Of a DNA stretch of 27,766 nt, positions 1 to 27,766 are shown one piece after another (the first letter of the stretch is position 1; every line of letters begins with the position of its first letter). The stretch covers positions 1 through 27,766 of IMG/VR virus record IMGVR_UViG_3300049135_000200, one strand, 5' to 3'. The notes beneath the pieces are model-generated. The model saw only the letters and a program-made list of their open reading frames with translations, searched no databases and was not told the DNA's origin. Position numbers and translations under genes: made by a program. This DNA is from a virus. Taxonomy: Duplodnaviria > Caudoviricetes.

Positions 1-609
1 ATGACCGACTACAAGATGCCGCCGCTGCGGCGCAACGGAAACACCAGCACGCTGGCCCGGCCGCACGTGTTCCCGCTCCCGGACGACACCGTCGCCGACG
101 AGCCGCAGCCACAGGTCACCCCGCCCGCGCAGCCCGAAGAGCTGGAGAACGAGACCCGCAAGGGCGCACTGGCCAAGGTCAGCGACTGGAGCCGAAGCGC
201 CATCGCCAGAGAGTCCCGCCGGGCCGCCAAGTCGCGTGGCGTCTGGGGCGAGCACCCGCCGTCCCTGTCGATGCTGCACCAGTGGATCAAAGTCAGTGAC
301 TGGTACTGCAGCGAGGCGGGCCTGAAGAAGGCACTCGCCTGGATCGACGGCCACCTGGTGGTCATGCCGATCACCGCGCTGCTGTACGGCGCCGCGTGGA
401 GCCTGCACCTGCTGGTGAGGCGCGGCCTCTGGCATGACGCCCCGCCGCCGCTGTCGGCCCTGCTGGAGGTGAGCGGCGCCCGCCGATGGCTGCTGCCGCT
501 GGTCCTTCCGATCACCGCGCTGCTGTACATCGCCACCTGGATCTGGCAGCGCCCCCTGCGGCGGCTGGTGGCCGCCGTGCTCGCCACCATCATCCACCTC
601 TACCTGTAG
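1..609 (+). CDS. Membrane protein with internal duplication (probable transfer/spread accessory)
   Basis: 202 aa ORF with GC3-biased codons and hydrophobic segments; PITALLY occurs twice. The stop overlaps the RBS of the next gene (TAGGAG). Confidence 0.8.
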   Translation: MTDYKMPPLRRNGNTSTLARPHVFPLPDDTVADEPQPQVTPPAQPEELENETRKGALAKVSDWSRSAIARESRRAAKSRGVWGEHPPSLSMLHQWIKVSDWYCSEAGLKKALAWIDGHLVVMPITALLYGAAWSLHLLVRRGLWHDAPPPLSALLEVSGARRWLLPLVLPITALLYIATWIWQRPLRRLVAAVLATIIHLYL

Positions 610-618
610 GAGACGGCC

Positions 619-1542
619 ATGCCGATGATCCTGCTCGCATTGGTTATCTCCTGGGCCCTGGTGCGGGCCGCCGAGGAGACCTGGGGTCACGCCAAAGTCG
701 CGACAGCCACGGCCCGCACCAAGCTCGACCAGACAGTCCGTGACCGCATCAAGGCCAAGCACTGGATTCCCGGCCGCACGAAGGGCACCTGGTGGCCCTT
801 CGTGGGCTTCACCAGCCTCTGGCTGACCGGCAAGACGCTCAAGCACGGATGGGGCGTCTCCAAGGCCGTCGGCCGGGGAGTGCGCAAGGGCGCCAAGGAA
901 GGCCGTCGGCGCTACGCCGAAGGCAAGGCCGTCCGCGACGCCGAGCAGGGCCGCAAGTGGTCCTGGGAAGAGTGGGCCGACTACCTGGACGACGTGTCCA
1001 AGCAGCCCACCCGAGGCCACGCCGAGCGCGTCGACGAGACGCCCGAGGCCAGCCCGGAGCCGGAGCCCGCCAAGCCGACCGGCGAGCCCGAAGACATCGT
1101 CGAGGCAGAAGTGATCGACACGCCTCACGAGACGGCGGACGAGCCCCAGACGCCGCCCGCCACAGAGCCGCTCCCCGCCCTGGAGAGCGGCGAGACCCCG
1201 GCCACGACCGGGACTGACACAACAGGAGAGATCATGACCCAGGCCATTTCCGGCGAGGCCACCAACCTGGCCGCCGCCCGCGCCGTCGCCGCCTGCATCG
1301 AGTCGACGATCGCGGACAGCGCGAACACCGTCGAGCAGATGATGGGCGACCTCAGCTCCCAGGGCGTCGGCGACGGGACCATCGCCCGCTTCTACGGCGT
1401 AATGGAAGCCCTGCACAACACCCGCGCGCTGGCCTCGGCCGCCGCGCAGGGCATGGAGGACGACCACGCCCAGGTCGAGGAGATCATCCAGGCCAAGTCC
1501 GACGTCGTCGCCAGCAACACCGCGTTCTACCAGGGCGGCTGA
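619..1542 (+). CDS. Membrane-anchored transfer accessory protein (TraA-like position) with acidic Pro-rich linker and helical C-terminal domain
   Basis: AGGAG RBS, N-terminal hydrophobic helix, P/E/T-rich linker, about 100 aa helical C-terminus ending AFYQGG, directly upstream of the FtsK-like gene. Confidence 0.8.
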   Translation: MPMILLALVISWALVRAAEETWGHAKVATATARTKLDQTVRDRIKAKHWIPGRTKGTWWPFVGFTSLWLTGKTLKHGWGVSKAVGRGVRKGAKEGRRRYAEGKAVRDAEQGRKWSWEEWADYLDDVSKQPTRGHAERVDETPEASPEPEPAKPTGEPEDIVEAEVIDTPHETADEPQTPPATEPLPALESGETPATTGTDTTGEIMTQAISGEATNLAAARAVAACIESTIADSANTVEQMMGDLSSQGVGDGTIARFYGVMEALHNTRALASAAAQGMEDDHAQVEEIIQAKSDVVASNTAFYQGG

Positions 1543-1550
1543 ACCGCTCA

Positions 1551-1585
1551 CCGGGCCTCGCATCGTGCGGGGCCCGGCCTGTTTT
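1551..1585 (+). terminator. Hairpin (possible terminator or attenuator) upstream of the traB-like gene
   Basis: CCGGGCCTCGCA-TCG-TGCGGGGCCCGG forms a 12 bp stem with one G-U pair, followed by CCTGTTTT. Confidence 0.45.
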
Positions 1586-1618
1586 CCCCACTACGAGACC
1601 CCGGAGGGGGTGCCCCAG

Positions 1619-3617: not shown

Positions 3618-3697
3618 AGGGTAGCGCCCAGCGAGAGTCTGCGCAACCCGCGAACTGACTACCGACTGTGACTAACGACCATGAAGGAGAAGCCCCC

Positions 3698-4726
3698 ATG
3701 ACCACCCCAAAGCGCCATAAGAAGATCACAGGAAAGATCGGCACGATGCTCGCTGTGAGCGGCGTGGCTGGCTTGGGTGTCTCCATAGGCGCCTTCGTCC
3801 TGTCCTTTGACGCCATCAAGGCCGTTGCCGAGGCCGCTCATGTTTCTGAGTCAATCTCCTGGCTGATGCCGGTATCCGTGGACGGCGCCATGACGGTAGC
3901 CACCATGGCGGCGATGTCCCTGGAGGTGCTCGGCAAGAAGAAGCTCTGGTATCCGGGGTTCGTCTTCGTGGCCTGCTTGGTCATCTCGCTTCTCTGCAAC
4001 GCCCTGCACTCGGCGAAGAGCAAGACCGTCGGAGTGGGCGAGGCGGCCAAGAACGTCGTCGAGTTGGAACCGCTCTATGCGGCCCTTGTCTCGGCCATCC
4101 CAGCCATCGCGTTGGCGCTCACCCTTCACTTGTTGATCATGATGATTCAAGCCGTCGGCGACTACCTCAGTGAGGGCAGTGAAGACCTCACTGGGGCCTC
4201 GCCAAAGGTCGCCAGTGAGGCTCCGGAGGGCAAGATCAGTGAACCCGCCGAAGCCGCTCCAGTGAACCTCGCGGCGACCTCACTGACTGCCTCACTGGCG
4301 ACGCCCCCCGGAGCTGTCAGTGAACCCTCACTGGCCCGCTCCAGTGAACCCTCACTGGCACCCTCACTGGCCCGCTCCAGTGAACCCAGTGAACCCCTCA
4401 CCGGTGAACCCAGTGAGGCCACGCCAGTGAGGCCCCCGGCGTCCTCCAGTGAGCCCCCGGCGAAGCCCGTCCGCAAGCCTTCCCGCCCGGCGGCCAAGCC
4501 CGCCAAGGCTCGCCAGGAAGCCGCCTCCGGCAAGATCGATATCACGGCCATGGGCGACTCCGACCTGCTGGAACTGCTGGCGCGGGACTTCGCTGCCGAC
4601 GAGCTGTCGGCCAACAAGATTCGCCTTCGGTACAGCATCGGCACCGACAAAGCGAAGGTCATCTACGACCGCTGGAAGACCCTCACTGACATCACCGACG
4701 AGCAGCTTGCGGCCGTCGGCGAGTGA
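3698..4726 (+). CDS. DUF2637/SpdB2-like membrane protein with Pro/Ser-rich linker and C-terminal HTH
   Basis: Four hydrophobic segments with AFVLSFDAI, WLMPVSVDG, SLLCNALH and VSAIPAIAL motifs typical of DUF2637. ATG at 3698 follows AAGGAGA. The C-terminus contains LSANKIRLRYSIGTDKAKVI. Confidence 0.8.
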   Translation: MTTPKRHKKITGKIGTMLAVSGVAGLGVSIGAFVLSFDAIKAVAEAAHVSESISWLMPVSVDGAMTVATMAAMSLEVLGKKKLWYPGFVFVACLVISLLCNALHSAKSKTVGVGEAAKNVVELEPLYAALVSAIPAIALALTLHLLIMMIQAVGDYLSEGSEDLTGASPKVASEAPEGKISEPAEAAPVNLAATSLTASLATPPGAVSEPSLARSSEPSLAPSLARSSEPSEPLTGEPSEATPVRPPASSSEPPAKPVRKPSRPAAKPAKARQEAASGKIDITAMGDSDLLELLARDFAADELSANKIRLRYSIGTDKAKVIYDRWKTLTDITDEQLAAVGE

Positions 4727-4940
4727 AGTCAGTGAACCCTCACCGGCTTCACCCAGTGGGGGGTTCACTGACACCCTCACTGGGTGCCTCACTGGAGCAC
4801 TCAGTGAGGCGCATCCAGTGAACCAGTGAACCCTCACCGGGGCTCACTCAGTGAGGGGTTCGGTGAACCTGAAAATCAAGATCACAGTGAACCTCGTGCA
4901 AGATCACAGTGAGGACACGCCAAGCAAGATCAGTGAACCT
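4166..4940. repeat. Dense array of CAGTGA/TCACTG motifs (unit CAGTGAACCCTCACTG)
   Basis: About 30 exact hexamer copies by manual count in both orientations, in two clusters (4166-4455 coding; 4681-4940 mostly non-coding), plus CGGTGA/TCACCG variants. Confidence 0.95.
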
Positions 4941-4954
4941 CTGGAAGGACGCCC

Positions 4955-5353
4955 ATGAACCCGCTCCCCTTACACAAGCTCGCGCTCATCTCCGCCGGAT
5001 TCGCCGTCGCTGGGTACGCCATGGCGTTTCCCTTCGACGACCCCGTTCACGAATGGGGAATCTGGGCGGTCATCGTCCTCGCACCCAGCTTCGGCGTCAT
5101 TATCGGCTGGCGGGTGCATCGCGACCGAGGCGGCCCGCTGGGCCAAAGCCTGATTCTTCACCTCGTGGCCCTAGCCCTGTGGGTCCTGGGCGCTCTCACC
5201 ATTGCCCGTAACAGCGTCGCCTTCATTGGGCACCTCGTCCCCATCGACACCTTCTACGACGGACTCGCCACGGCTCTCATGGTCGTCGCCCCCCTCCTGA
5301 CGATGGCGCTGCTGATCGTGGATGCGATCCGGATGGGCGAGCCGCTCAACTGA
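4955..5353 (+). CDS. Small four-TM membrane protein of unknown function
   Basis: GAAGGA RBS; 132 aa with four hydrophobic stretches; followed by a terminator. Confidence 0.75.
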   Translation: MNPLPLHKLALISAGFAVAGYAMAFPFDDPVHEWGIWAVIVLAPSFGVIIGWRVHRDRGGPLGQSLILHLVALALWVLGALTIARNSVAFIGHLVPIDTFYDGLATALMVVAPLLTMALLIVDAIRMGEPLN

Positions 5354-5382
5354 CCAAGGTTCGCCGATCGCCCCGAAAGATC

Positions 5383-5431
5383 AAAGCCCCCGGTTCCGAC
5401 CTCTCCGACGAGGTTGGAACCGGGGGCTTTT
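5383..5431. terminator. Strong, probably bidirectional intrinsic terminator
   Basis: AAAGCCCCCGGTTCCGACCTC-TCCGAC-GAGGTTGGAACCGGGGGCTTTT, a 21 bp stem between convergent blocks. Confidence 0.85.
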
Positions 5432-5868
5432 GCATGTCTGCGATCAGATGGCGTGATCATGGAAAATCGAGGCCCTGAGATGGCCGTAGACGGACGAACG
5501 GCAGGTGGGCGGTATGGCGGGATGGGTCCCACAGAGCGGCCCTCACAGGCCAGTACAGCGATTGTGCCTCTGACCTGCGTAAACACGGAGGGAGGGGCTC
5601 GACTCGGTCAGAACCAAGATCGAACCCCTCCCATGGCGCCGGGGCATGACCACCCCCACGGGGACTTCACCCGGCGCGGCACGGGGCGGGGGCCGCCGCA
5701 CATATGATCAAGGTTACGGCTCAGCGGGCGGCCGTGTCGCGGCCTTCGATCTCAGTGTCCGATCAAGGCAGTGGCACCGGTGAGCGCGTGCCTCCCACTG
5801 CGACGACAGGGTGAACACCGCGACGAACCCGGCCGCCATGCGCCACCCCAGACAGCGGATGCGCTCGA

Positions 5869-6882: not shown

Positions 6883-6894
6883 TCTGGCCTCATT

Positions 6895-6931
6895 TCTGGG
6901 GGACGATAACTTAATCTTATCGTACGTCAGA
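6895..6931. promoter_or_regulatory. lox/res-like recombination site overlapping the likely recombinase promoter
   Basis: TCTG-GGGG-ACGATAA-CTTAATC-TTATCGT-ACGT-CAGA: inverted arms around a 7 bp asymmetric AT-rich spacer, 13 bp upstream of the start codon. Confidence 0.7.
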
Positions 6932-7036: not shown

Positions 7037-7747
7037 TCAGAAGGCCGGGACGCCCCACCCCGAAAATCCAGAGGCGGCCGGGGCGACGGTCACGAGCGGA
7101 CGCGACGCCCGGCGGTTCCCCCAACTGACCGGTGGGCCGTCCTCCTTCGTGGCCCCGGTGCCGCCGGACAGGGTGGCTCCGCTTCCGCTGTAGTCCACCG
7201 CCTCCGGGGACATCAGGGGGTACCAGGCGCGCAGGCCGCTGGTCCTGTTGGGGACGTGCGTCCACGCCTCCTGCTGAAGCTCCGCCACGCTGAGGGTCGC
7301 GCCCCACCACTTAAACCCGGCCATGCACCCGTCGAGCCATTCGCCGCTGTAGATGGACCGGCCAAGCTGGAGCGTCTGGTGCACGATCGCGCCCTGGCTG
7401 GCGATGGCCACCGTCGTAAAACCGCTCGTCGGCGTGCAGTAGACGGCGCTGCCGGTCGCCCCGTTCATCGTGATCCCGACGAAGTACCAGGTGCCCACCG
7501 TCATGTTGACGATCGGGACGGCCGTGAAGCTTGCCGAGGTGATGAACTCAAGGTTCGTGCCAGTGTTGGACGTCTGGAGGATGGAGAAAACGTCGCCACC
7601 GGCGGCGTCGCCCAGGCACCAGGCCGATTGCCAGGTGTTGCGGTCGGAGGTGAGCTTGATCCAGCAAGCCACCGAGTAGGCCGACTGAGACCCGAGCGCC
7701 ACCACGCGGTTGTAGGTCTGGGCCTCGGCGGCGAAGCGGACCGCCAT
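7037..7747 (-). CDS. LamG/concanavalin A-like domain virion protein (candidate receptor binding)
   Basis: YSVACWIK, GTWYFVGIT, LQLGRS, WLDGCMAGFKWWGATLSVAEL and LRAWYPL motifs typical of LamG-like jelly rolls. Confidence 0.8.
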   Translation of the reverse strand: MAVRFAAEAQTYNRVVALGSQSAYSVACWIKLTSDRNTWQSAWCLGDAAGGDVFSILQTSNTGTNLEFITSASFTAVPIVNMTVGTWYFVGITMNGATGSAVYCTPTSGFTTVAIASQGAIVHQTLQLGRSIYSGEWLDGCMAGFKWWGATLSVAELQQEAWTHVPNRTSGLRAWYPLMSPEAVDYSGSGATLSGGTGATKEDGPPVSWGNRRASRPLVTVAPAASGFSGWGVPAF

Positions 7748-8251
7748 CTACGTGTCCGAGTACGACAGCCGGACCGAGGTCAGCAACGCGTCCCCCGCCA
7801 TGGTGTCGGCCGCGTTGCCGCCGATCCTGCCGACCCGCAGCCAGCATTCGTCCCCGGCGGCGATGGAGTCCAGGTTGGAGATGGCGACGCTGGCCCGGTG
7901 AAGTCGCTGGCCCACGGTGCCGAGGTGGGTGTCGTCAACCGTCTGAGCGGTGGCGAGGCCGTCGGTCTCAACGTCCTGGGTGTCGACGTCCGGGGTGATG
8001 GCCGCGATGGCAACTTCCCAACGGACCACGCCGGAGGTTGCCGTGTCGGCATACCAGACCAGGTCACAGGTGATGTTGCCCGAGCCGTACTGGAAGGGCA
8101 CCCACTTCCAGAAGGCGTACTCGGTGGCGGCAGCGTCATAGGCCAGCAGCGAGATCGGGAAGTTCGTGCCGTTGTTCTTGACGTACTGGGCGAACGAAGC
8201 CCCGAGGAACTGGGCCTCCTCCGGGAAGATCCCCTGGTAGACGGTGGCCAT
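7748..8251 (-). CDS. Minor tail or virion protein (beta-rich)
   Basis: 167 aa, good codon bias, abuts neighbours in the tail cluster. Confidence 0.7.
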   Translation of the reverse strand: MATVYQGIFPEEAQFLGASFAQYVKNNGTNFPISLLAYDAAATEYAFWKWVPFQYGSGNITCDLVWYADTATSGVVRWEVAIAAITPDVDTQDVETDGLATAQTVDDTHLGTVGQRLHRASVAISNLDSIAAGDECWLRVGRIGGNAADTMAGDALLTSVRLSYSDT

Positions 8252-8254
8252 CGC

Positions 8255-8515
8255 TCAGTCCTCCTGAGCGCGCAGGCGGCCGATGCGACGCCATAGGACG
8301 TAGGCGAAAATCTCCGCCTTCTGCTCAGTCGTGGCCGCCGCGCGGAACGGCTGGGGTAGCGCCTGGTTGAAGGAGGCCAGGTTGGCCTCGATCCAGTCGT
8401 CCGTAGCCGCCACGGCGGCCAGCAGGTCGGCCTTGGTGAACGAGGTGGTGGTGATGTTCTCGCGCATCCACTGGTTGGCCACGCGCTGACGTGCTTGCAC
8501 CCCGAGTACGGGCAT
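8255..8515 (-). CDS. Small helical phage protein
   Basis: 86 aa, GGAGG RBS upstream, co-oriented in the operon. Confidence 0.7.
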   Translation of the reverse strand: MPVLGVQARQRVANQWMRENITTTSFTKADLLAAVAATDDWIEANLASFNQALPQPFRAAATTEQKAEIFAYVLWRRIGRLRAQED

Positions 8516-8569
8516 GCGAAAGCCTCCGGTTGTCCGGTGAAAGGTGAAGAGGAAAGGGGGGCGCTGCGG

Positions 8570-9058
8570 TCAGCAGAGAATCTGAACCGTGAGGTCAGAC
8601 CCCGCGATGGTCGATCCGACGGCGTCAAGATCGACGGTGAAGTAAGCGCCGTCCGCGATGGTCGTTACGTTGTGGTTGGTGACCTTGCCGCTGGTGAAGT
8701 TCGTCGCGGTGATGGTCGGCCGGTTGCCCTGCGTCGTGAAGATCGTGGTCCCGCCGACGTTGACGTCCACCACGATGGACGCGCCTGTCGGGGCGGTGCC
8801 CACGCTGGCGCGCACGGCCTTGATGGTGAGCGTGGCGCCGGTGTCGTTGTAGATGCGGAAGGTGCCCGTGCCGGTGGTGAGCGTCCCAGCCTTGGAGAAG
8901 GCGAACAGGACGCCCGGTTCCAGCAGTCGTTCGACGCCCGCCGAGGTGCGCAGGAAGAGCTGATCGCCGGTCTTGGCGAACACCGACGTCACGCCCGATG
9001 CCGGGCTGGACGGGGAAGCCTGGTGCGTCAGTTGCAGGGGTGAGACGTTCCTGGTCAT
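8570..9058 (-). CDS. Minor tail protein (beta-sandwich tip domain)
   Basis: 162 aa Thr/Gly-rich; AVRASVGTAPTGASIVVDV...GSTIAGSDLTV; ATGA overlap with the upstream gene. Confidence 0.75.
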   Translation of the reverse strand: MTRNVSPLQLTHQASPSSPASGVTSVFAKTGDQLFLRTSAGVERLLEPGVLFAFSKAGTLTTGTGTFRIYNDTGATLTIKAVRASVGTAPTGASIVVDVNVGGTTIFTTQGNRPTITATNFTSGKVTNHNVTTIADGAYFTVDLDAVGSTIAGSDLTVQILC

Positions 9059-10047: not shown

Positions 10048-10054
10048 GCTGCTC

Positions 10055-10716: not shown

Positions 10717-10717
10717 G

Positions 10718-11026: not shown

Positions 11027-11034
11027 CGCTCCCC

Positions 11035-11523: not shown

Positions 11524-11530
11524 GGCGCTC

Positions 11531-12016: not shown

Positions 12017-12025
12017 GGGTGTCTC

Positions 12026-12517: not shown

Positions 12518-12523
12518 GGCGTC

Positions 12524-18359: not shown

Positions 18360-18856
18360 CCGTTTTCTACCTCTCTCGCGATGCGTTCGACAACGGATTG
18401 GGCCGCTCGGGCGGCCTCTTCCTCGGCGGGCCGGACGGCCTTGAAGAAGAAGGGGTGCGCGGACTGGGCGTACCAGCGCTCCGCGTCGCCGAAGAGGGGG
18501 TGACGCCACTGGCGGCGCCTGTTGGTGCCCTCCACGTAGGAGGGCAGCGACCCCTGGCGGTCTGGCATCTTCTTGCCGGACACGATGATCGACACCCCGG
18601 CGGCGCGGCCCCCGGTGGTGACCCGTAGGGCGGTCGCCTTCTGCAGGCGTTTGCGCAGCGTGACCCGCCCCCGGCGGGCGTTCTCACCCTTGGAGGGCAG
18701 CGTGGCGATGGCGCGGCGCACCGCCGGGACGAACGGCTTGGCGGTCTTGCGAAGCTCGGTGCGCAGCTCCTTGGCCAGCCGCTTGCCGTCGGCGTGCTTG
18801 CGCAGGTCCTTGGTGAGCTTGCGAAGGTCGTCGCCCTTGATCTCCAGCCGGGTCAT
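18356..18856 (-). CDS. Basic neck/tail completion protein (HK97 gp10-like)
   Basis: Start MTRLEIKG at 18856 (TGATG overlap); very basic; YVEGT...WRHPLFG...W...HPFFFKAV. Confidence 0.7.
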   Translation of the reverse strand: MTRLEIKGDDLRKLTKDLRKHADGKRLAKELRTELRKTAKPFVPAVRRAIATLPSKGENARRGRVTLRKRLQKATALRVTTGGRAAGVSIIVSGKKMPDRQGSLPSYVEGTNRRRQWRHPLFGDAERWYAQSAHPFFFKAVRPAEEEAARAAQSVVERIAREVENG

Positions 18857-19266
18857 CAGGCGACGGCGCGGGTCCAGGGTCCGGCGATCGGCCACGAGAC
18901 GGACCGGGTGGCCAGGTCGCCCACGCTGCCGTCGATCGGCGTCATCTCGTTGACCAGGACCGACCCCTCGTACTCGGGGTTGTCCGCGCCGACCACGCCC
19001 GCATCCGGCCTGATGACGACGTTGACCGTCTGGCCCCACAGGGCCCACAGGCTCTCGTCCAGGCTGTTGTCATCGAAGTCGTTGACGAACTCGATGTCGA
19101 GCGAGCCGTCCTTGAGCCCCATGATCCGGGACCGGAAACCGTTGCCACCGAAGGTGGTCGTCTCGACGTCCTCGCCTTCGAGGTTCAGCGTCACGCTGGT
19201 GGCCTTGTTCGACCAGTCCACCGCATTGATTTCGATATAGGCGTTAACGAAAACCATCGCCGCCAT
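18856..19266 (-). CDS. Major tail (tube) protein
   Basis: ATG at 19266 after a GAGGAG RBS; 136 aa acidic and beta-rich; EDVETTTFG...GLKDGSLDIEF, NPEYEGSVLV, GSVGDLAT. Confidence 0.82.
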   Translation of the reverse strand: MAAMVFVNAYIEINAVDWSNKATSVTLNLEGEDVETTTFGGNGFRSRIMGLKDGSLDIEFVNDFDDNSLDESLWALWGQTVNVVIRPDAGVVGADNPEYEGSVLVNEMTPIDGSVGDLATRSVSWPIAGPWTRAVA

Positions 19267-19283
19267 GCGTGTCTCCTCATAGC

Positions 19284-19348
19284 AAAGGCCGCCCCGAAGG
19301 ACGGCCTGAGGTGCGGAAATGAAAAAGCCGCCCCGGTCGGGACGGCCT
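19284..19348 (-). terminator. Two tandem related hairpins; the first is terminator-like
   Basis: Minus strand GCCGTCCC-GACC-GGGGCGGC-TTTTT, then AGGCCGTCC-TTCG-GGGCGGCCT-TTG. Confidence 0.7.
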
Positions 19349-19355
19349 GGTGGTG

Positions 19356-20072
19356 CTACTGAACGGCGATGGCTCCGGCGACCTCGAAGGTCCCTGTCAC
19401 TGCCGAGACGTTGAGACGCCAGTGGCTTTCGCCGACGAACGGTCCGGCGACGCGGGCCAGCCAGAACCCGCCCTCGGTCGTGACGGCCGGGAAGGTGGCC
19501 CGTACGGTCGGCGTGGCGAACGTGCTGTTGGTGTCGGACTGGACCTGCACGGTCAGTGTCGTTCCGGCGTCGAAGACGTGCAGGGAGGCGTAGACGTACT
19601 GGCCGGAGGTGGGGGCGGTCAGCTCGACGACGCTGCCCAGCGCGCCGGTGGCGCTCACGGTGCCCTTGGCCTTGGCGAGCTTGCCGCGCACGACGCCGAG
19701 GGTGTTGGAGCTCATCATCGAGATGCTGAAGGGGATCAGCTCGCCGACGGAGCCGCCGATCTCGTAGGAGAACTGGCCCGCCTGGTAGAAGTAGGCCGGG
19801 CCGCCCTCCACGCCGGTCGGGGAGACGGTGACAACGCGGTTGGTCTTGCCGAAGCCCTCCCACATCGCCTCATCGACGGGGCCACTCCAGAACCCGGCGT
19901 GCTCGCTGGACACCTCGCGCAGTCCCATCACTCGCTGCCGGAAGCCATTACCTCCGAACGTGGTGGCGTCCAGATCTTCGCCCTCGGCGTTGAGCGTGAT
20001 GTTGTTGCTCTGCGTCGTGTAGTCGAAGCCGTGGATCCACGTCGTAGCGTCTGTGAAGACCAGGGCGGGCAT
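19356..20072 (-). CDS. Tail tube paralog with an extra C-terminal beta domain
   Basis: The N-terminal 130 aa or so align by eye with the downstream tube protein (TLNAEGEDLDATTFGGNGFRQRVMGL, GSVGEL); about 100 aa extension. Confidence 0.8.
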   Translation of the reverse strand: MPALVFTDATTWIHGFDYTTQSNNITLNAEGEDLDATTFGGNGFRQRVMGLREVSSEHAGFWSGPVDEAMWEGFGKTNRVVTVSPTGVEGGPAYFYQAGQFSYEIGGSVGELIPFSISMMSSNTLGVVRGKLAKAKGTVSATGALGSVVELTAPTSGQYVYASLHVFDAGTTLTVQVQSDTNSTFATPTVRATFPAVTTEGGFWLARVAGPFVGESHWRLNVSAVTGTFEVAGAIAVQ

Positions 20073-20290
20073 CAGCTCTTAGCCTTCCGCCCAGCGCTCT
20101 TCTCGGAGGCCGCCACAGGGTCGGGGTCGCCCTCGGGGACCTTGTCGATCGCCTCGACCTGGCCGGTCTCGACCAGGATGCGGATGTTGTACCTGTCGGG
20201 ATCCAGCTCGACGGTGTTGGGCGCCTCGACGCCCGCGACCGCGTTTGGCCCGATGACCTTGACCTTCACGGTGTCCTTGGACTTGGCCAC
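20072..20290 (-). CDS. Small phage protein
   Basis: 72 aa, GAGGAG RBS, GTG start, overlaps the next start. Confidence 0.7.
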   Translation of the reverse strand: MAKSKDTVKVKVIGPNAVAGVEAPNTVELDPDRYNIRILVETGQVEAIDKVPEGDPDPVAASEKSAGRKAKS

Positions 20291-20300
20291 GGGAAACTCC

Positions 20301-20720
20301 TCAGATTCCGGATGCGTAGATGCGCAGCGAGAACTCGCCGACGTACATGGGGACCCCGCCGACGTCCTGGCGGCCGAAGGGGCGAAAGGTGGTGACGATG
20401 CAGTCGCTCACCGCGCCACCCAGCCGCCGATCCGCCTCAACGGCGCGCACGACCGAGCTGCCACCTGCGGGATTGCCGTAGGCGGCCAGGGCCAGCTGAC
20501 CGGTGCGGTCATCGACCGAGGTGACGAAGACCTGCACGCCCAGGGATAGCTCGGCCAGGCCGCGCCCCATCGCGGTGTGGTAGTCGACGACCTCGGGCAT
20601 GCCGACGGCCGCGTGCGGCGGGTTGATCTGGTCGGGCGTGTAGAACGACACGCGCAGGCCGCTGATCGTGCGCAGGCGGGTGGCGACGCCCTCCATCACG
20701 GCCTCGAAGGTGAAGGCCAT
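20301..20720 (-). CDS. Tail terminator-like protein
   Basis: Start MAFTFEAV at 20720 (TGATG overlap); RLRTISGLRV...PDQINPP...AVEADRRLGG; expected position in the operon. Confidence 0.7.
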   Translation of the reverse strand: MAFTFEAVMEGVATRLRTISGLRVSFYTPDQINPPHAAVGMPEVVDYHTAMGRGLAELSLGVQVFVTSVDDRTGQLALAAYGNPAGGSSVVRAVEADRRLGGAVSDCIVTTFRPFGRQDVGGVPMYVGEFSLRIYASGI

Positions 20721-21337
20721 CAGGCGACCAGCACCGTGGCGGAGGCGAGCTGATAGGGCTCCAGCAGGGCCACGACGAGGGCGTTCTCCCGCACTCGCAT
20801 GGGTGCGGCGAACTCGCTGGTGCCGCCGGTCACGCCGAACGCGGCGTCCTTCAGCTTGAACAGGTCGGTGGCCAGCGCCAGCGTGGCCGACTTGATCGGA
20901 GGCGGAACCGCCTCCCAGCCGTACTTCGCGGTGATGCGCACGCGGGCCTGACGGCTGCACGGGAAGCTGTAGGTGCTGGCGTAGATCTCGGAGTAGGGCC
21001 AGCCGGAGACGCCGTCCACGGTGCCGTTCAGCGGCTCCAGGACGTAGTCATCGCTGGCCCAGGTGGTGGCGAATCCGCCGTCCCCGGCGGTATCCACCTC
21101 CACCACCAGGCCATCGGTGGTCCAGATGTCCGACACCGCGAGCCGACCGGATCGTGAGGGCCGATACAGCTGCGGGACCGCGACGTCGGCCCGGTTGAAC
21201 TGGCGGTGACACCAGTTCTCGACGTGCCGGGAGGCGGCATCCAGGGCGCGGGTCAGCTCGGCGTCGTTACGCGAGTCGGTCAGCGACAGGGACGCCTTCA
21301 GCTCGTCCAGGTCGGCATACGGGTCGCCCAGGGCCAC
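20720..21337 (-). CDS. Head-to-tail adaptor (gp6/gp15-like)
   Basis: YADLDELKASL...AASRHVENWCHRQF...VRITAKYGWEAVPPPIKSATL. Confidence 0.85.
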   Translation of the reverse strand: MALGDPYADLDELKASLSLTDSRNDAELTRALDAASRHVENWCHRQFNRADVAVPQLYRPSRSGRLAVSDIWTTDGLVVEVDTAGDGGFATTWASDDYVLEPLNGTVDGVSGWPYSEIYASTYSFPCSRQARVRITAKYGWEAVPPPIKSATLALATDLFKLKDAAFGVTGGTSEFAAPMRVRENALVVALLEPYQLASATVLVA

Positions 21338-21411: not shown

Positions 21412-21660
21412 CTACTTGGCCTTGTCGCCGCCGCGCTTGGCGGCCTTGTCCTCACCGGGCACGGCCTGCTTGCCCTGCTCGTCCTGGACCTCGGCGTCGG
21501 GCTCGGCCTCGGGCTCCTCGGCGCTCAGCGAGCGGACCTTGTCCTCGTCCTTGGGCTCGACCTCATCGCCGGGGGCGTAGGCGAGGGTGGCCGCCTTCGG
21601 GTTCTCAGCGGCGACCAGCTCGCCGTCAGCGGTCTTCCAGATGTGGCATTCGGCCTGCAT
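21412..21660 (-). CDS. Small acidic head-associated protein
   Basis: 82 aa, AAGGAGAG RBS, charged low-complexity C-terminus typical of genes following the capsid gene. Confidence 0.75.
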   Translation of the reverse strand: MQAECHIWKTADGELVAAENPKAATLAYAPGDEVEPKDEDKVRSLSAEEPEAEPDAEVQDEQGKQAVPGEDKAAKRGGDKAK

Positions 21661-21675
21661 GGTGTTCTCTCCTTG

Positions 21676-22083
21676 CTAGTCGGGAACGACGACGTAGAAC
21701 AGGACGACATCGAAAACGCCCGCCGTCAGGGCGGCCGTGGCGACCGTGGCCGTGACCTTGCGGGTGGTGGTCGTCTTGACCATGGCCGACCCGGTGAAGT
21801 CGGGAACGATGTCCTTGCGGCCGGTGCTCGACCAGGGGGCGCCGGAGATCGCGGCAGCGGCCACAATGTCGCCCGCCCCCTCGATCTTGACCGCCACGGT
21901 GGCCGACCCGCCGGAGGTTGGCACGGTGTCCACCTCCAGGAAGCCGCCGATCACCACGGCGTTGGCCGGGAGGTTGGCGCTCAGCTCGATGTCGCCGACG
22001 GCACCGCCGTCCACGGCGAAGTCGTAACGTCCACGGATGGCCTTGATGGACCCGACCGACGGGTACCCGCCCGAGTAAGGCAT
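21676..22083 (-). CDS. Probable capsid decoration/cement protein
   Basis: 135 aa beta-rich Ala/Val/Thr protein (LPANAVVIGG...LTAGVFDVVLFY) directly after the major capsid gene. Confidence 0.65.
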   Translation of the reverse strand: MPYSGGYPSVGSIKAIRGRYDFAVDGGAVGDIELSANLPANAVVIGGFLEVDTVPTSGGSATVAVKIEGAGDIVAAAAISGAPWSSTGRKDIVPDFTGSAMVKTTTTRKVTATVATAALTAGVFDVVLFYVVVPD

Positions 22084-22099
22084 GACATGTTCTCCCTGA

Positions 22100-23326
22100 T
22101 CAGACGCTGGTAACGGTGCTGAACGCGGACGGCCGATAGATCACCAGAGCGGCCCGAAGGTCAGCCCTGATCGCCTGCTGGCCGGACGTGAACAGATCCG
22201 CGTGGCTGTTGGAGATCTGCACGTCGATGCCACGCCGGGTGGCCAGCTCCGAGAAGTTCTGGAAGTCGCCGACCAGGGCGGTGTTCTCGGTGAGCGCCTG
22301 GGCCTCGACCACGGGCAGGCCCCACATGCGCGGCGTTCCGGCCTCCGAGGGCGAGCCGTAGAGGTAGATGCCGTCGGTGGTGCGCAGCAGGCGGACGTCC
22401 TGCCAGTCCATCGGGTTCATCACGATGGCGTTCGGCACGGCCTGGCCGTTGACGCGGACCTTCACCAGCGCCCGGTAGATGGCGTTCAGCGAGTTGTCCG
22501 TACCGCCGCCCACGGCCTCGGTCTGGATGCCCGTGGTGTTGAGGATGCCGCGCAGGTTCGGCGCGGTGCCCGACCCGGTGAGAATCTGAGCGTCGAGCCG
22601 CTGGCGGACCATGAACGGGAGCCGGTTGTTGATGTAGCCCCGGATCTGCGGCACGTCTTCCAGCTGCTCGTCCGTGACCGGCAGCCACACACCGATCTTG
22701 CGGACCGGGCTGGTCCGCTCGGTGAAGACCAGCGCAGCCTCGGGGTACGCGCCACCCTCAGAGATGGCGGCGGCGTTGTTCGTGAAGGTCGTCTCCTCCA
22801 TGAACGTAATGGCGGTCTGCGTGGTCGTGGTGGACGGGATGATGTCCGCGACCTGAAGCGGCGTGGTGATGAAGTCGACCACGCGCGGGCCGCGCGTGGT
22901 CTCCGGTGCCCAGCCGGAACCGGTCTCCAGCAGCGCCTTCAGCTCGACATCCAGGCGGGCCTCAGGGCCGACAGCGCCCTGCTTGCCCTTGAACGCCTTG
23001 GACTCGATGAACATGTCCGCGAAGGACTTGGCCTGACGCGTGGATCCGCCCGGCTCAGCGCCGGGCTCGACGTTCTGGGAGTCGCGCTGCCGGGAGCGCT
23101 CGGCGGCCTTGGCCACGTCCTGAAGCGCCTCGATCTTGGTGCCCAGCTCGTCCATCTCGGCGTTCTTGGCCCGGATCCATTCGATCTTGGCCTGACTGTC
23201 GCCGTCCAGGGACTTGATCTGGCCCATGTCCATCTCGGGACCGGCCTCGGCGAAGACGTCGTTGAGCGCCTTCTGGGCAGCGTGAAGCTTGCCCTGAGCT
23301 TCCGTCAGGGCAGGGAATGCCGTCAT
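22100..23326 (-). CDS. HK97-fold major capsid protein with N-terminal delta domain
   Basis: Coiled-coil N-terminus; EGGAYPE, VRKIGVWLPVTDEQLED, ILTGSGTAPNLRGI, MNPMDW, WGLPVV, LVGDF. Confidence 0.95.
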   Translation of the reverse strand: MTAFPALTEAQGKLHAAQKALNDVFAEAGPEMDMGQIKSLDGDSQAKIEWIRAKNAEMDELGTKIEALQDVAKAAERSRQRDSQNVEPGAEPGGSTRQAKSFADMFIESKAFKGKQGAVGPEARLDVELKALLETGSGWAPETTRGPRVVDFITTPLQVADIIPSTTTTQTAITFMEETTFTNNAAAISEGGAYPEAALVFTERTSPVRKIGVWLPVTDEQLEDVPQIRGYINNRLPFMVRQRLDAQILTGSGTAPNLRGILNTTGIQTEAVGGGTDNSLNAIYRALVKVRVNGQAVPNAIVMNPMDWQDVRLLRTTDGIYLYGSPSEAGTPRMWGLPVVEAQALTENTALVGDFQNFSELATRRGIDVQISNSHADLFTSGQQAIRADLRAALVIYRPSAFSTVTSV

Positions 23327-23352
23327 GGCGGTTTCTCCTGGTATGCGCGGCG

Positions 23353-24069
23353 CTACGCCGCGTGAGTCTTAGCGAGATAGCGCAGGTACTCGCGCTGAAG
23401 CTCGCTCGTGATGTCCGGGGCGGTGTCGCTGGTCAGCAGGCCGGAGAGCTTCTTCAGCTCCGCCTCGACCAGTTCCAGCAGGGCCACCGAATCGGCGCCC
23501 AGCCCCTTGCCCTTCTCGCGCCGCTTCGCCATGACGTCGGCAGCGCGCTCGGTGAGGGACGCCACGGCGGCCACGACCGCCTGGGCTTCCTCGCCGAACT
23601 TCAGGGGATCGGCGCTCTTCACCGCGAGGGTGCGTGTGCCGATTCCAGCCCCCAGCAAAACTGGGGAGACCTCGTGGATCTTGGACTTCTCCAGGATGCG
23701 GACGCGGTCCTCGCCGCGCTCCTCGTAGGAGAAATCCTCGATGTCGAACCCGTAGCTCCACTCCTGGAGGGAGCCCATCTCCTTGACCACCTCGAACGTG
23801 TCCCGTCCGGCGGCGGTCTGAAGAAAGAAGCGGCCCTCCAAGATGGCCTCGGTGTCTGTGACGCGGACGACGCCCTTGCCGACGGGCAGCGCGCCCTCCC
23901 AGGACTTGTGCTGGTAGGCGCTGATGCGCACGGGGGCGCCATCCTCGAACGCCGTCGGCAGAGTCAGGTCGCCATCTTTGTCGATCTTCCCAAAGGTGGA
24001 GAAAACCGCCGACACCTCACCCTTGGCGGCATCCTTGATCTCGACCTGGCCCAGGCTCTTAGTGATCAT
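23353..24069 (-). CDS. HK97-family prohead protease
   Basis: DKDGD...AF, YQH, WSYGF and HEVSPVLLGA motifs; lies between portal and capsid. Confidence 0.9.
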   Translation of the reverse strand: MITKSLGQVEIKDAAKGEVSAVFSTFGKIDKDGDLTLPTAFEDGAPVRISAYQHKSWEGALPVGKGVVRVTDTEAILEGRFFLQTAAGRDTFEVVKEMGSLQEWSYGFDIEDFSYEERGEDRVRILEKSKIHEVSPVLLGAGIGTRTLAVKSADPLKFGEEAQAVVAAVASLTERAADVMAKRREKGKGLGADSVALLELVEAELKKLSGLLTSDTAPDITSELQREYLRYLAKTHAA

Positions 24070-25472
24070 TCGCTCTGCTCCGTTGCGGGCTCGGTGGGTT
24101 CGTCATCAGGGCCCGCATCGGGGGCCGGGGCAGTCTGTGCGTCCTGGAGCTGGACCGACCGGACACCGGAATCGACCAGCAACGTCTCGTCGTCAGCCGC
24201 CACGGCGTCCCGCGCCGAGTCGAGCGTGTAGCCGATCTCGGCGTACTGGCGGATCGTCTGAGCACGGGTGAAGGCGATCTCGGCGGCGTCCTTGCGGTCC
24301 TCACGCAGGAACGCGATGTCGCGCTCGTCGATCCACAGCTCGGCGTCGGCAGGCACATCGACCAGCCGCGCGAGCGACCCGGCGATATTGCGCCACAGGG
24401 GTCGCATCGTGCCGTCAGCGAACCGGCGGCGGGCGGCGGCGTAGTTGCCCTGGTTGAGCGAGGATCCCTGAAGGCCCTCGGAGAAGCCCACGATGACCGG
24501 CGGCACCCCGGCCGCCGAAGCCAGGCGCGTCTCACCGCCGCCCTGCAGCGCCTTGAAATCCAGGTCCCGGAAGTTGAACGTGAGCGGCTTGACGTCGGCT
24601 CCGCCGCCAATGATGAGCGGCTTGTGCGCGTTGTCGGTGCCCTGATGGGCCTCCAGGAACGCCTCGACGAACTCGGTGAACGCGGCGGGCTTCACCGAGG
24701 CATCCAGGGAGATGGACAGGTTCGGCGTGGCCGCGTTGGAGAAGAACTTCAGCTTGTGCTTGGTCGTGGCGTTGTCAGCGGTGATCTCCCGCAGAACCGG
24801 CGTCAGCCAACTCATGCCGCGCCAGTTGAACTCGGGGTCCGGGATCGGCGCGAAGTGGGCGACCTGCTCAGGAAGCAGGATCGTCGGCTCCACGCGCCCG
24901 GCCACGCGCGGCTCGTAGACGTAGGCCACGACGCGGGCGTCCAGCGCAGCGCCACCCAGGGGCGACGAGGGGTCGCTGGCCGACTCGGAGATGATGGTGA
25001 CCCAGTCCGGCCGCAGCAGCCGCAGCCGCTCGCCGTACTGATCCTTGACCTTGGTGACGTAGGCGTTCCCGGCCAGGTCCGCGTGGGCGATGATGCGAGC
25101 CAGCAGGTCACCGGTGGTGCCGCCCGGCCACGGATTCTCCAGCAGGTTCAGGGCGGGCGTGCCGAACAGCTTGCCGCCACGGCCGTGACGCAGCTGACGG
25201 AACTGAAAGCGCGCCTCGGAGAAGATCTGCAGGCGGACCAGCATGAGCGAGAACACCGGGCCGTTGCCCTTGAACGCTCCGGACAGGTAGCCCTCGAAGT
25301 CGTTCTCGATGGTCTCTTCGTTGTAGGCCAGCGAGGTCGGAGACAGCCAGTTGTAGCGGGCGCGCTGCAGGTCCCAGAACGGCGAGTCCGCCCACGGGCC
25401 AGAGCTGGTGTGCCCGTTGATGGTCAGCCCCTTGCGGCCAAGGCGCTGGCTGGCGCGCTGGAGAAGGTTCAC
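24066..25472 (-). CDS. Portal protein (HK97 family)
   Basis: LAGNAY, LRPDWV, GMSWL, FFSNAATP and AGVPPVIVG motifs. Confidence 0.93.
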   Translation of the reverse strand: MNLLQRASQRLGRKGLTINGHTSSGPWADSPFWDLQRARYNWLSPTSLAYNEETIENDFEGYLSGAFKGNGPVFSLMLVRLQIFSEARFQFRQLRHGRGGKLFGTPALNLLENPWPGGTTGDLLARIIAHADLAGNAYVTKVKDQYGERLRLLRPDWVTIISESASDPSSPLGGAALDARVVAYVYEPRVAGRVEPTILLPEQVAHFAPIPDPEFNWRGMSWLTPVLREITADNATTKHKLKFFSNAATPNLSISLDASVKPAAFTEFVEAFLEAHQGTDNAHKPLIIGGGADVKPLTFNFRDLDFKALQGGGETRLASAAGVPPVIVGFSEGLQGSSLNQGNYAAARRRFADGTMRPLWRNIAGSLARLVDVPADAELWIDERDIAFLREDRKDAAEIAFTRAQTIRQYAEIGYTLDSARDAVAADDETLLVDSGVRSVQLQDAQTAPAPDAGPDDEPTEPATEQSE

Positions 25473-25666
25473 GGGGCGAGCTCCTCATCAACGCCAGGCG
25501 GCGGGGCGTCGACATCCACCAGTAGGACGGATCCGACGAGAACGGCGACGCCCGAGGCGATCAGAGCCGCAGGGATCCCGGCGAGCAGGTACAGGCCGAC
25601 GACGATCAGGACGGCCCCGACGATGAACCCCACCGACGCCCGGTCGAGCTTGAACAGCGTGATCAC
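25469..25666 (-). CDS. Small two-TM membrane protein
   Basis: 65 aa with two hydrophobic helices, between terL and portal; GTGA overlap with portal. Confidence 0.7.
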   Translation of the reverse strand: MITLFKLDRASVGFIVGAVLIVVGLYLLAGIPAALIASGVAVLVGSVLLVDVDAPPPGVDEELAP

Positions 25667-25677
25667 CCGGTTTCAGG

Positions 25678-27252
25678 TCAGAGGTCGAAGAAGGCGAAGC
25701 CGGGAACGTTGTGCTCCTCGACCGGGTCAGGGGCGGCGATCCGCCACAGCGCGATGACCAGCGCCACACAGCCGTCGATCTTGCGCTTGGACTTGCCCTT
25801 GGACAGGGTGAAACCGCGCTCTCCGGGACGGATGGCGGCAGACTTGACGTGGGCGCCGAGATCGGGATCCCCGTCATGAACGACGTCGCCATTGACGACG
25901 GCCACCAGGGCGTGACCGCACGCTGGAGCCATCCGCTCAGGCCTCTGCGGAAACTCGACCATGTTGAAGCCCTCGTCTTCGAGCATCCGGGCGGGGACCT
26001 CGAAGAAGCGCGGGTCGTAGGTGACCTCAGTGACCGTGTAGGCGTTGGCCAGGTCGAACCGGATGTAGTCGATGACGGCGAGGTGGTCGATCTTCCCGCT
26101 GCCGTCGGGTTTCCAGATCCTGGCCTTGACCGCGACCTTGCCATCCGGCCGCTTCCAAGCAGCTAGGACGGCCGTCGAGTCGTGCTTCGAGGACATGTCC
26201 ACCGCCACGACCACGTCGGCCTTGTCGGGGATCGTGGCGTCACCGGCGCACTTGTCCCAGGCGCCCGGGTAGTCCTTAAGCCAGGAGTCTTCGGCGATGT
26301 CCACCCAGCGGTTGGCGTAGTAGCGCATCCACTCGTGCCGGGGCATCGACGGCTTGCCCCAGTCGTCGACCCGGTCGGCGATGTTCCACAGGACCCCGGC
26401 CGCCTTCGAGGCGGCGCGCACCGCGATGGCCCGCTGCTTGGGGTCCTCGTAGTCCAGGTCCTCGGGAGCCTCCTGCCAGTCGAACAGCAGGCGCGGCGCG
26501 AGCGAGGGATCCTTCAGCGCCTTCAGGCCGCGCTTGTACATGACGCCCAGCAGGGAGTGGTCCACGTCGAAACCAGCCGTCGACAGGTTCAGCACCCGCC
26601 CGGACCCGCGCGCCGTGTTGCGCTTCTTGGTCGACTTGGAGATGACCGTGTGGACGCGGGCGCTCTTCTCGCCGACGTCGCCCCACTCGTGCACCTCATC
26701 CGCGATGAACAGGTGCGGCAGGCCGCCCTCGTTCGTCCCGGCCATGGCCGCCACGCGCCGGATCTCGCCCGGCTGCCCGTCTCGGAACCGGATGACCTTG
26801 TCGTAGACGGCGAAGAACCCACACAGGGGCGCCTCGGTGATCTCGTCGTTCTGGCCGCCGACCATCTGTCCGGCCTTGGCGAACAGCTCGTTGGCCTGAT
26901 CGAGGGAAGCTGCCGCGATGTCGATCATTGGCGAGATGGGGGCGATCTGTGGCGGCCCTGCGAACTCCAGCAGGGCGATGGCCGCGATGAAGGTAGTCTT
27001 CCCGTCGCCCGTTGCCGCGCCGCGTACGCCCTCGTCGTAGCGCCACTGCTGGCACTGCGGGCAGTGCGAGTACCAGTCCCACAGGAACCGCTTCTGGTCC
27101 TCGCGCAGCCGGAACGGCTGGCCGAACGTGTCCCCTTCCGGGAAGCACAAGTTGTCCTGAATCCAGCGCACGGCCATGCCGCCGAGGGACGGCCACAGTG
27201 CGCCCGGGTCCGATGCCCACCCGCACGCCTGACAGGGCTGATCAGGCCCCAT
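25678..27252 (-). CDS. terL: Terminase large subunit
   Basis: Q-motif (LREDQ), Walker A-like ATGDGKTT, Walker B IADEVHEW, LSTAG, nuclease VDMSSKHDSTA, YDP, KIDGCVA. The start is probably ATG 27252 (GAGG RBS) rather than 27300. Confidence 0.93.
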   Translation of the reverse strand: MGPDQPCQACGWASDPGALWPSLGGMAVRWIQDNLCFPEGDTFGQPFRLREDQKRFLWDWYSHCPQCQQWRYDEGVRGAATGDGKTTFIAAIALLEFAGPPQIAPISPMIDIAAASLDQANELFAKAGQMVGGQNDEITEAPLCGFFAVYDKVIRFRDGQPGEIRRVAAMAGTNEGGLPHLFIADEVHEWGDVGEKSARVHTVISKSTKKRNTARGSGRVLNLSTAGFDVDHSLLGVMYKRGLKALKDPSLAPRLLFDWQEAPEDLDYEDPKQRAIAVRAASKAAGVLWNIADRVDDWGKPSMPRHEWMRYYANRWVDIAEDSWLKDYPGAWDKCAGDATIPDKADVVVAVDMSSKHDSTAVLAAWKRPDGKVAVKARIWKPDGSGKIDHLAVIDYIRFDLANAYTVTEVTYDPRFFEVPARMLEDEGFNMVEFPQRPERMAPACGHALVAVVNGDVVHDGDPDLGAHVKSAAIRPGERGFTLSKGKSKRKIDGCVALVIALWRIAAPDPVEEHNVPGFAFFDL

Positions 27253-27766
27253 CGACGACCTCACCGCTGACGATCCGCAGACGTGGGTCCGGGTCGTCAT
27301 CGTCCTCAGCGGCGCCCGGATCGCTGTAGCGGGCGTTCATCTGGGCCAGCGACCGCTGCTCGGAGATGGCAGCCAGGCCCAGCGAGGCGGCGTTCAGACC
27401 GCCGATGCCCAGCTGCTTCTCGCACCGCTCGACCACGTTTATGGCCTGCTCGGCGATCTTGTACAGCGGGTTCAGTACTTCCTGCCCCTGCGACCCCTCG
27501 ACCAGCGGAGACTGGTCCGCCTCCGCCACCGTCCGCAGGTAGCGATCCAGCGCGTCCACCCAGCGCAGCAGCACGACCTTGGCCGCCGGGGTGACCAGGT
27601 GCGCGGGCCGGTCCTCCCAGAACGCGTCCCACGCGGCCTTGGCGGGCTTGGACAGGCCGCGCGGAGGCGCGAACTTCTCCACCTTCAGGCCGGGAACCAC
27701 GCCGAGGACCTGCTGGCCGTTCCGCTTGTCCACGGCCGTGCCCGCGACCTTCTTCGCTCTGGGCAT
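27242..27766 (-). CDS. terS: Terminase small subunit (P27-like)
   Basis: PPRGLSKPAKAAW, GSQGQEVLNPL and EKQLGI motifs; directly upstream of terL. Confidence 0.85.
   Translation of the reverse strand: MPRAKKVAGTAVDKRNGQQVLGVVPGLKVEKFAPPRGLSKPAKAAWDAFWEDRPAHLVTPAAKVVLLRWVDALDRYLRTVAEADQSPLVEGSQGQEVLNPLYKIAEQAINVVERCEKQLGIGGLNAASLGLAAISEQRSLAQMNARYSDPGAAEDDDDPDPRLRIVSGEVVDGA

Follow-up and report, generated by a model that had tools for sequence, protein, structure and literature searches.

The 27,766-nt stretch analysed here, referred to as the window, is virus record IMGVR_UViG_3300049135_000200, which joins an FtsK-family transfer module, a Cre-type tyrosine recombinase with a putative site of its own and the virion operon of a siphovirus. 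It is likely to come from a temperate siphovirus whose prophage is a low-copy circular plasmid, a conjugative plasmid-phage of the pZL12 and PhiNon1 kind with cassettes plugged into a phage backbone. The virus probably lives as a plasmid and can probably move between cells without virus particles. That the window represents one element, as proposed in an earlier sequence-only reading, is well supported by a bridging contig at even depth, the same layout in the relative G419, a parA gene in the near-identical record L236 and the precedents of PhiNon1 and pZL12.

Extent of the element and likely host

The DNA read comprises the 27.8-kb window and a 2.7-kb extension to its right, out of a 41.3-kb source contig. 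The window is not the whole element, as the earlier reading had treated it, the record being clipped at start codons on both ends (the ATG of orf1 on the left, that of terS on the right), which points to trimming at gene borders by a provirus caller. For the TraB-like protein, the recombinase and TerL alike, the longest contig recorded measures 41,324 nt. To the left of the window, run X1 has a contig that reaches 5,802 nt beyond its start, and to the right L236 reaches 2,681 nt beyond its end, so that the molecule measures at least 36,249 nt. The window would make up about two thirds of a complete virus genome of about 41 kb.

Among named sequences, those closest to the recombinase (65-72% identity) and to TerL (77-82%) belong to Streptosporangiales, and the runs containing window DNA are soil metagenomes; the predicted host is a Streptosporangiales-like filamentous actinomycete of soil. 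The codon-position GC is similar for orf1, orf2, traB, the recombinase gene and the virion genes (0.89-0.94). No tRNA or tmRNA gene is found in the window, in line with the earlier observation that none separates the modules, and no Rfam family reaches its gathering score there. Exact DNA from the left end of the window matches 0 viral records. A GC-skew minimum near 5-6 kb was considered as a sign of an origin and left unused, being explained by the switch of gene strand.

One molecule and its relatives

In run X1, a single contig spans window positions 1-7307 with 0 differences at a depth of 41.1, and the pieces covering the virion genes have depths of 39.5-41.7, while run X2 covers both the transfer and the virion parts at a depth of 58-98. 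A chimeric assembly is rejected on the strength of this junction-bridging contig at even depth. Runs X1 and X2 may be the source runs, and their evidence, which excludes a chimera, leaves room for two neighbours in one chromosome. Run X5, from another study, contains a 92-95% variant with the transfer genes (depth 17.6) and the virion genes (depth 10-14) on separate contigs.

The closest long relative is G419, with a TerL identity of 86% and a nucleotide identity of 78.8% over 11.3 kb. Its helix-turn-helix (HTH), HNH and terS genes lead through to the tail genes, followed by a recombinase gene and then by a converging 352-aa membrane gene and TraB. Its arrangement of virion genes, recombinase, spd-like gene and traB is the layout of the window, and its virion genes are likewise unbroken. 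The G419 recombinase (342 aa) is XerC-like and unrelated to that of the window (blastp E 0.07), and the G419 TraB is only 28% identical to the TraB-like protein of the window and comes with its own repeat motif. The homology stops at the hairpin at 5376, beyond which the transfer genes are non-orthologous. The junction 5376-5656 (78%) and the recombinase leader (window 6936-7032, 81%) are both kept in G419, at identities like those of its virion genes, so that conserved backbone makes up most of the zone 5431-5868. From these alignments, the transfer genes on one side of that backbone and the recombinase with its site on the other are best read as candidate swapped cassettes. Attachment sites or a synteny break in 5431-5868, named in the sequence-only reading as signs of two neighbouring elements, did not emerge: the zone is largely backbone at 78% identity to G419 and contains no tRNA gene.

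On the other side of the phage, L236 is 99.7% identical over 8.4 kb and adds an HNH gene, a small HTH gene, a gene of DNA-binding type and the 5' part of parA, which lies 2.4 kb past the right end of the window; no parB was seen. The search for rep and parA advised earlier had a divided outcome, with the 5' part of parA present in L236 and no rep gene seen. A scan for close copies of the L236 parA yields none, the best 79 loci having identities of 32-67%, and its comparison with plasmids gives no match.

As to the proposed linkage of terL, capsid, Cre and traB, G419 repeats the layout with an unrelated recombinase, and the link with TraB is patchy among 34 terminase relatives. The 65-kb G006 encodes terminase, portal, coat, tail tube and tape measure proteins, a 68% copy of the recombinase, TraB, an orf1 homologue and GntR. 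Its FtsK module faces the virion operon, as does the different FtsK module of G421 (TerL 83%). A TraB-profile match is found in 6 of the 10 virus records with a recombinase of the window-type family (or 6 of 7 when only records with a completeness of 87% or more are counted), where a terminase is confirmed only for G006 and G011-G013. A 76% recombinase and a 78% TerL are each recorded with a longest contig of 38,696 nt, probably one and the same contig. Between its tail genes and transfer module, G006 also carries a lone CRISPR Cse1 (Cas8e) gene and an ATP-dependent ligase gene (L219, 4373-5791).

We consider it unlikely that a prophage ending near 5376 has been inserted in or beside a TraB plasmid or an actinomycete integrative and conjugative element (AICE), with the recombinase as its integrase and only the phage part packaged. 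Such a border would fit the end of the G419 homology at the 5376 hairpin with non-orthologous transfer genes beyond it, the lack of FtsK in most terminase relatives, and the clipping of both records at gene borders, which is typical of provirus calls. It would also fit the metagenomic TraB relatives, which lie in AICE- or plasmid-like contexts (GntR, Prim-Pol, DUF3987 or ParA) and mostly without virion genes among the genes scanned. However, under this explanation two unrelated recombinases must have entered two different plasmids at one and the same position, behind spd and the repeats, and the two flanks of the recombinase cassette share no word of 10 or more bases. Moreover, the recombinase is of the Cre/SCP2.07c resolvase type with its own site upstream, parA lies on the opposite side of the phage, and PhiNon1, a proven circle, contains TraB.

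The Cre-type recombinase and its site

The earlier assignment of a Cre-like recombinase with an adjacent inverted-repeat site holds. With a profile of 30 recombinase sequences, all 17 of the 17 PDB matches are Cre or its derivative Tre. The protein has the Cre fold, and its catalytic set R173, K200, H284, R287, W310 and Y320 is intact and invariant. The site at 6895-6931 has 15-bp arms, matched at 12 of 15 positions, around a 7-bp spacer that is read identically in contigs of two runs. Among related loci, the consensus upstream of the recombinase gene is ACCCG(C/T)GATAA-N6-TTATC(G/A)CGGGT, detected in 51 of 91 loci by pattern and in 59 of 90 by score, the latter all with a 6-bp spacer and none with 7 bp. 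We take this core type, GATAA-N6/7-TTATC, to be unlike loxP. The upstream site is absent from the close homologues L080, L081, L092 and L122. Members of this recombinase family accompanied by a 28-bp dif-like site of high conservation (L090-L169) are widespread in Nonomuraea and Streptosporangium genomes, away from TraB or the window-type terminase.

The recombinase would resolve plasmid dimers at 6895-6931 and may repress itself, because the site directly precedes its start. ParA would partition the circle of about 41 kb and, together with the resolvase, maintain the prophage. A TraB hexamer would use its winged helix to bind the CAGTGA(A/G) repeats and, assisted by the membrane proteins, would move the circle as double-stranded DNA into an adjacent hypha or compartment. 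On induction, HNH, TerS and TerL would fill HK97 heads with unit genomes of about 40 kb that include traB, starting from a cos-type site close to HNH-terS. The resolution and transfer cassettes would be exchangeable modules on a conserved phage backbone.

The transfer module and its repeat field

The convergent traB/spdB2-like module described earlier within about 500 bp of the recombinase was recovered as an FtsK_SpoIIIE gene followed by a DUF2637 gene. It runs against the virion and recombinase strand, and its last plus-strand gene stops at 5353, leaving a gap of 515 bp to the recombinase stop. In the TraB-like protein, the Walker A (GGTGSGKS, 308) and Walker B (VVIDE, 411-415) motifs are both intact, and the AlphaFold2 model (predicted local distance difference test score 72.6) shows N-terminal membrane helices, an FtsK motor and a C-terminal winged helix. 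The top Foldseek ranks for the model are EccC, FtsK and TcpA, and the winged helix matches HTH families below cut-off only. The identity is 28% to SCP2 TraA (over 297 aa) and 29% to a PhiNon1 gene. The protein is predicted to be TraB-like in its working while lying outside the plasmid_TraB equivalog.

The DUF2637 protein, which we take to be SpdB2-like by its architecture, belongs to Atlas clusters with the DUF2637 label and has no match in the relatives' loci compared. Upstream of traB, orf1 has weak homologues in the corresponding position in G006 and PhiNon1, and orf2 has 27% homologues upstream of TraB in L170/L171 and 10 relatives among 1.84 billion representatives. An in-frame internal duplication of 141 bp in orf1 (window 366-508) is missing from the variant contigs of runs X4 and X5.

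The motif C[AG]GTGA[AG][CG], which the sequence-only reading does not mention, occurs 35 times in the 796 nt of the repeat field, compared with a mean of 0.5 and a maximum of 4 in 500 shuffles. There are 22 copies on the plus strand and 13 on the minus strand; the DUF2637 gene contains 21 of the 35, and the other 14 follow it downstream. The variant CAGTGAGG has 16 copies in the field and 1 elsewhere in the window, and CAGTGAAC has 12 in the field and 0 elsewhere, with a polarity of 11:1. G419 and G006 have repeat fields in the same position with other motifs. The clt regions are described as containing 8-bp repeats bound by TraB, which pumps double-stranded DNA, and Spd proteins as spreading the plasmid through the mycelium (PMC4447253). 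The statement in the sequence-only reading that TraB alone mediates transfer is too simple, as SCP2 and pZL12 are described to require tra and two adjacent genes (PMC3583192).

It is quite unlikely that the window belongs to a single plasmid-phage whose FtsK/Spd module serves only intramycelial spread or spore segregation, with the repeats possibly being sites for the C-terminal domain of the DUF2637 protein. Most of the repeats do fall within the DUF2637 gene, and they occur in both orientations, like the SpdA2/sps stability system with a site in its own gene (PMC4170104), and SpdB2 homologues on some actinophages have been suggested to assist spreading (PMC4447253). However, the loss of traB is described to abolish pSVH1 transfer (PMC4447253), the nearest named protein to the TraB-like protein is the SCP2 major transfer protein, and the CAGTGAAC variant is polar.

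Between traB and the spd-like gene lies a CGCGCG-rich palindrome, with TACGCGG before it and GAGGGTA after it, in both the window (3586-3625) and G419 (L333, 11216-11262), where the flanking proteins are barely related. DNA similar to that at 3586-3625 is also seen in L172 and L182. The palindrome is possibly an operator or promoter.

The virion operon and the points against a conjugative plasmid-phage

The 35 predicted window genes were scanned with Pfam and PHROGs, by whose content the virion morphogenesis operon is complete. Spanning 27766 to 7037 of the minus strand, it is free of frame breaks and interruptions and encodes an HK97-type siphovirus head and tail. The claim of an intact-looking siphovirus operon thus stands for morphogenesis and fails for lysis, no endolysin or holin family being matched among the 35 genes. 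The PHROG label "endolysin" falls on the tape measure protein, while a small gene of the head region has a weak match labelled spanin (E 2e-4).

This lack of lysis genes, which extends to the 2.7-kb right extension and the G419 late operon, is one of several observations that weigh against a conjugative plasmid-phage. The window and the extension show neither a rep gene nor a repressor nor an end that would indicate a circle, the L236 parA is incomplete at the contig end, and ParA is found in 3 of 20 related records. The 7-bp spacer is atypical compared with the 6 bp of all 59 detected related sites. TraB or a window-type TerL lies within about 10 kb of the recombinase gene at 0 of 80 isolate-genome loci, which marks the recombinase as a promiscuous cassette. 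From 80 virus records with a related terminase, 34 were selected for their length and identity; of these, the TraB profile matches 2 (one weakly) and PF01580 matches 4 (0 of the 9 that are at least 90% complete), both counts being lower bounds, as the TraB profile missed the G421 FtsK and barely detects that of pZL12, which the PF01580 search misses. The window-type recombinase family is found in 0 of the 34 (with 1 weak partial match), and G420 (TerL 83%) is an integrase-bearing provirus with no FtsK. In 4 of 401 Streptosporangiaceae genomes TerL is found at E<=1e-60, and 0 of these 4 have a traB match in the 60-100 kb covered. The link with TraB being patchy among the terminase relatives, it is a property of a small branch and not of the terminase clade. 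Finally, the TraB-like protein scores 56.7 bits against the NCBIfam model NF041214 (plasmid_TraB), short of the cut-off of 800, and its repeats are of mixed orientation, whereas clt repeats are described as direct (PMC4447253).

The lysis genes also bear on a very unlikely explanation, in which a conjugative plasmid carries a virion operon without any lysis of its own, and particles are freed by lysis through the host or a helper, or never. In G420, G421 and PhiNon1, a lysis gene does follow the tail genes, where the window and G419 have none. On the other hand, 13.5 kb of the source contig lie outside the window, the peptidoglycan-binding enzyme of G006 sits apart from its tail genes, and the unbroken virion genes of the window and G419 suggest selection. 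A bolder variant of the plasmid-phage explanation, which we regard as doubtful, is that the window and G419 form a compact lineage (about 41 kb) that gave up its lysis genes, with a swappable resolvase in the slot after the tail genes. TraB pumping would be the main route of spread for such a lineage, which would set virions free only on self-lysis of the mycelium and replicate from 5376-5656. Its relatives would exchange resolution and transfer cassettes like plug-ins that bring along a site and a repeat code of their own. RNA-based prophage origins are known in mycobacteriophages (PMC7157519).

Comparison with known systems

The Streptomyces plasmid-phage pZL12 (NC_013420) resembles the window in having a virion operon, parAB, an FtsK-family transfer gene, GntR and a Cre-like recombinase. 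The full triad of virion operon, Cre-like resolvase and Tra is already present there. Its recombinase (pZL12.36c) is 31% identical to that of the window (profile E 3e-44), has a GATAA-N6 site and lies directly downstream of the virion operon. It differs in size (90 kb compared with about 41 kb) and in its Streptomyces host, its head and terminase are unrelated to those of the window (no tblastn match), and its FtsK has no blastp match to the TraB-like protein. Its tra locus is upstream of the virion genes and co-directional with them, whereas that of the window is convergent. The plasmid pSLE1 is described as syntenic with pZL12 (PMC4487206).

PhiNon1 from Nonomuraea gerenzanensis (NZ_LT559120.1, 59,257 bp) is described as reminiscent of pZL12 and was detected both as a circle and as a prophage (PMC5431353). 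It shares with the window the Streptosporangiales affiliation, an HK97-type head, a P27 terS, a DUF2637 gene and a transfer module that converges on the late operon, with identities of 40% for TerL and 29-30% for TraB. Unlike the window, it has an integrase with an attB located in tRNA-Val, numerous replication genes and a lysin gene that follows the tail genes, and it has no homologue of the window recombinase.

SCP2 combines the SCP2.07c recombinase, 36% identical to that of the window, and a TraA 28% identical over 297 aa with a 15-6-15 inverted repeat upstream of the recombinase gene, and differs by its 6-bp spacer and the absence of virion genes. We take SCP2.07c to be MrpA, with the site mrpS. 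The Cre protein of P1 has the same fold and all catalytic residues in common with the window recombinase at low sequence identity (profile E 6e-22). It resolves dimers of a plasmid prophage, and phage-plasmids are suggested to use recombinases in this way (PMC7969092).

The TraB/clt/Spd systems of pSVH1, pIJ101 and pWTY27 (PMC4447253, PMC3583192, PMC4170104) have, like the window, a membrane FtsK translocase with a C-terminal winged helix, neighbouring membrane proteins and short repeats near tra. The window differs from them in falling far under the plasmid_TraB cut-off, in its repeats of both orientations and in having no TraR/KorA within its limits.

The novelty implied by the sequence-only reading is not supported, as conjugating, particle-making plasmid-phages are already in print (PMC4170104, PMC3583192). 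The window is a compact, Streptosporangiales-like addition to the known plasmid-phages pZL12, pFP4 and PhiNon1, the very few cultured conjugative cases, and hybrids of phage and plasmid transfer are rare. Surveys of conjugation genes based on relaxases or mating-pair formation, a method described in PMC7969092, miss such plasmid-phages. Its fresh aspects are a compact build of the HK97 type, the clean exchange of both cassettes in a pair of relatives of 79% identity, the 7-bp site, the conserved junction and the absence of a lysin among the genes found. The literature searched, in which subscription journals are thinly covered, contains no account of this lineage or of such cassette swapping. 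The relatives with a 79% backbone, different TraB proteins and repeat motifs, and different recombinases and sites amount to a natural swap experiment. The pair of window and G419 yields testable combinations of TraB with repeat and of recombinase with site, including the 7-bp spacer, unusual for a Cre-type enzyme.

Non-coding junction and further features

The features of the window are collected in Table 1.

Table 1. Positions of the features in the 27,766-nt window
Feature	Position	Strand	Evidence
orf1, transfer-operon membrane protein, 202 aa	1..609	+	2 hydrophobic segments
orf2, transfer-operon protein, 307 aa	619..1542	+	no Pfam/PHROG match
TraB/Tra-like FtsK-family double-stranded DNA translocase, 627 aa	1619..3502	+	PF01580 E 2.6e-9
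DUF2637 membrane protein	3668..4726	+	PF10935 E 1e-12; at least 3 hydrophobic segments
clt/TRS (TraB recognition sequence)-like repeat field, motif C[AG]GTGA[AG][CG], 35 copies	4150..4945	.	motif count
132-aa protein with four transmembrane segments, Spd-like or holin-like	4955..5353	+	no family match
Conserved structured non-coding backbone segment, hairpins 5383-5430 and 5590-5632	5376..5656	.	
Cre/SCP2.07c-type tyrosine recombinase, 337 aa	5869..6882	-	profile search, catalytic residues
Putative resolution site, inverted repeat 15-7-15, core GATAA-N7-TTATC	6895..6931	.	directly upstream of recombinase
Distal tail, receptor-binding and decoration genes (LamG lectin, head-decoration-like, three ~160-aa paralogues)	7037..12517	-	
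Minor tail protein (645 aa) and tape measure protein (1063 aa, NlpC/P60)	12524..17652	-	Pfam, PHROGs
Tail chaperones, two tail-tube-like genes, tail terminator, head-tail adaptor	17653..21337	-	PHROGs
Head/packaging block (small genes, capsid, protease, portal, terL, terS)	21412..27766	-	Pfam, PHROGs
HK97 major capsid	22100-23326	-	Pfam, PHROGs
Prohead protease	23353-24069	-	Pfam, PHROGs
Portal	24066-25472	-	Pfam, PHROGs
terL	25678-27249	-	Pfam, PHROGs
P27-type terS	27242-27766	-	Pfam, PHROGs

The junction aligns with G419 at 78% over 289 nt (E 6e-58), with frame-breaking indels, and both hairpins refold in G419. Its fold has a z score of -4.0 without the first hairpin in the window and of -1.2 in G419. 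With two sequences only, changes on both sides are seen for 2 and 1 pairs and broken pairs number 4 per hairpin; a structured RNA is not claimed on this thin covariation. The hairpin 5383-5430 is probably a two-way terminator that ends both converging transcripts. Junction DNA has no match in plasmids, none in the 401 Streptosporangiaceae genomes (a search without a positive control), G419 as its sole match in viral contigs, and no Rfam family.

An HNH gene adjoining terS points to cos packaging. With its start at 18199 and a length of 9,653 nt, one contig of run X1 would extend about 85 nt beyond window position 27766 and stop between HNH and terS, either at the cos end expected there or at an ordinary assembly break.

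In the tail region, the slippery site GGGAAAC precedes the first stop of the tail chaperones. The tail-tube-like paralogues form a tandem pair (136 and 238 aa, window 18856-20072), as they do in G419. Between them, L236 (11094-11681, compared with window 19267-19355) has about 620 nt, also present in the X5 variant, which encode a 195-aa HNH_3 homing-type endonuclease. In its place, the window retains only two similar hairpins. The three paralogues of about 160 aa lie in tandem at 11035-12517 with a repeat spacing of about 495 nt, and the same slot in G419 holds three unrelated genes of about 150 aa. These tandem genes are likely to be variable receptor-binding parts.

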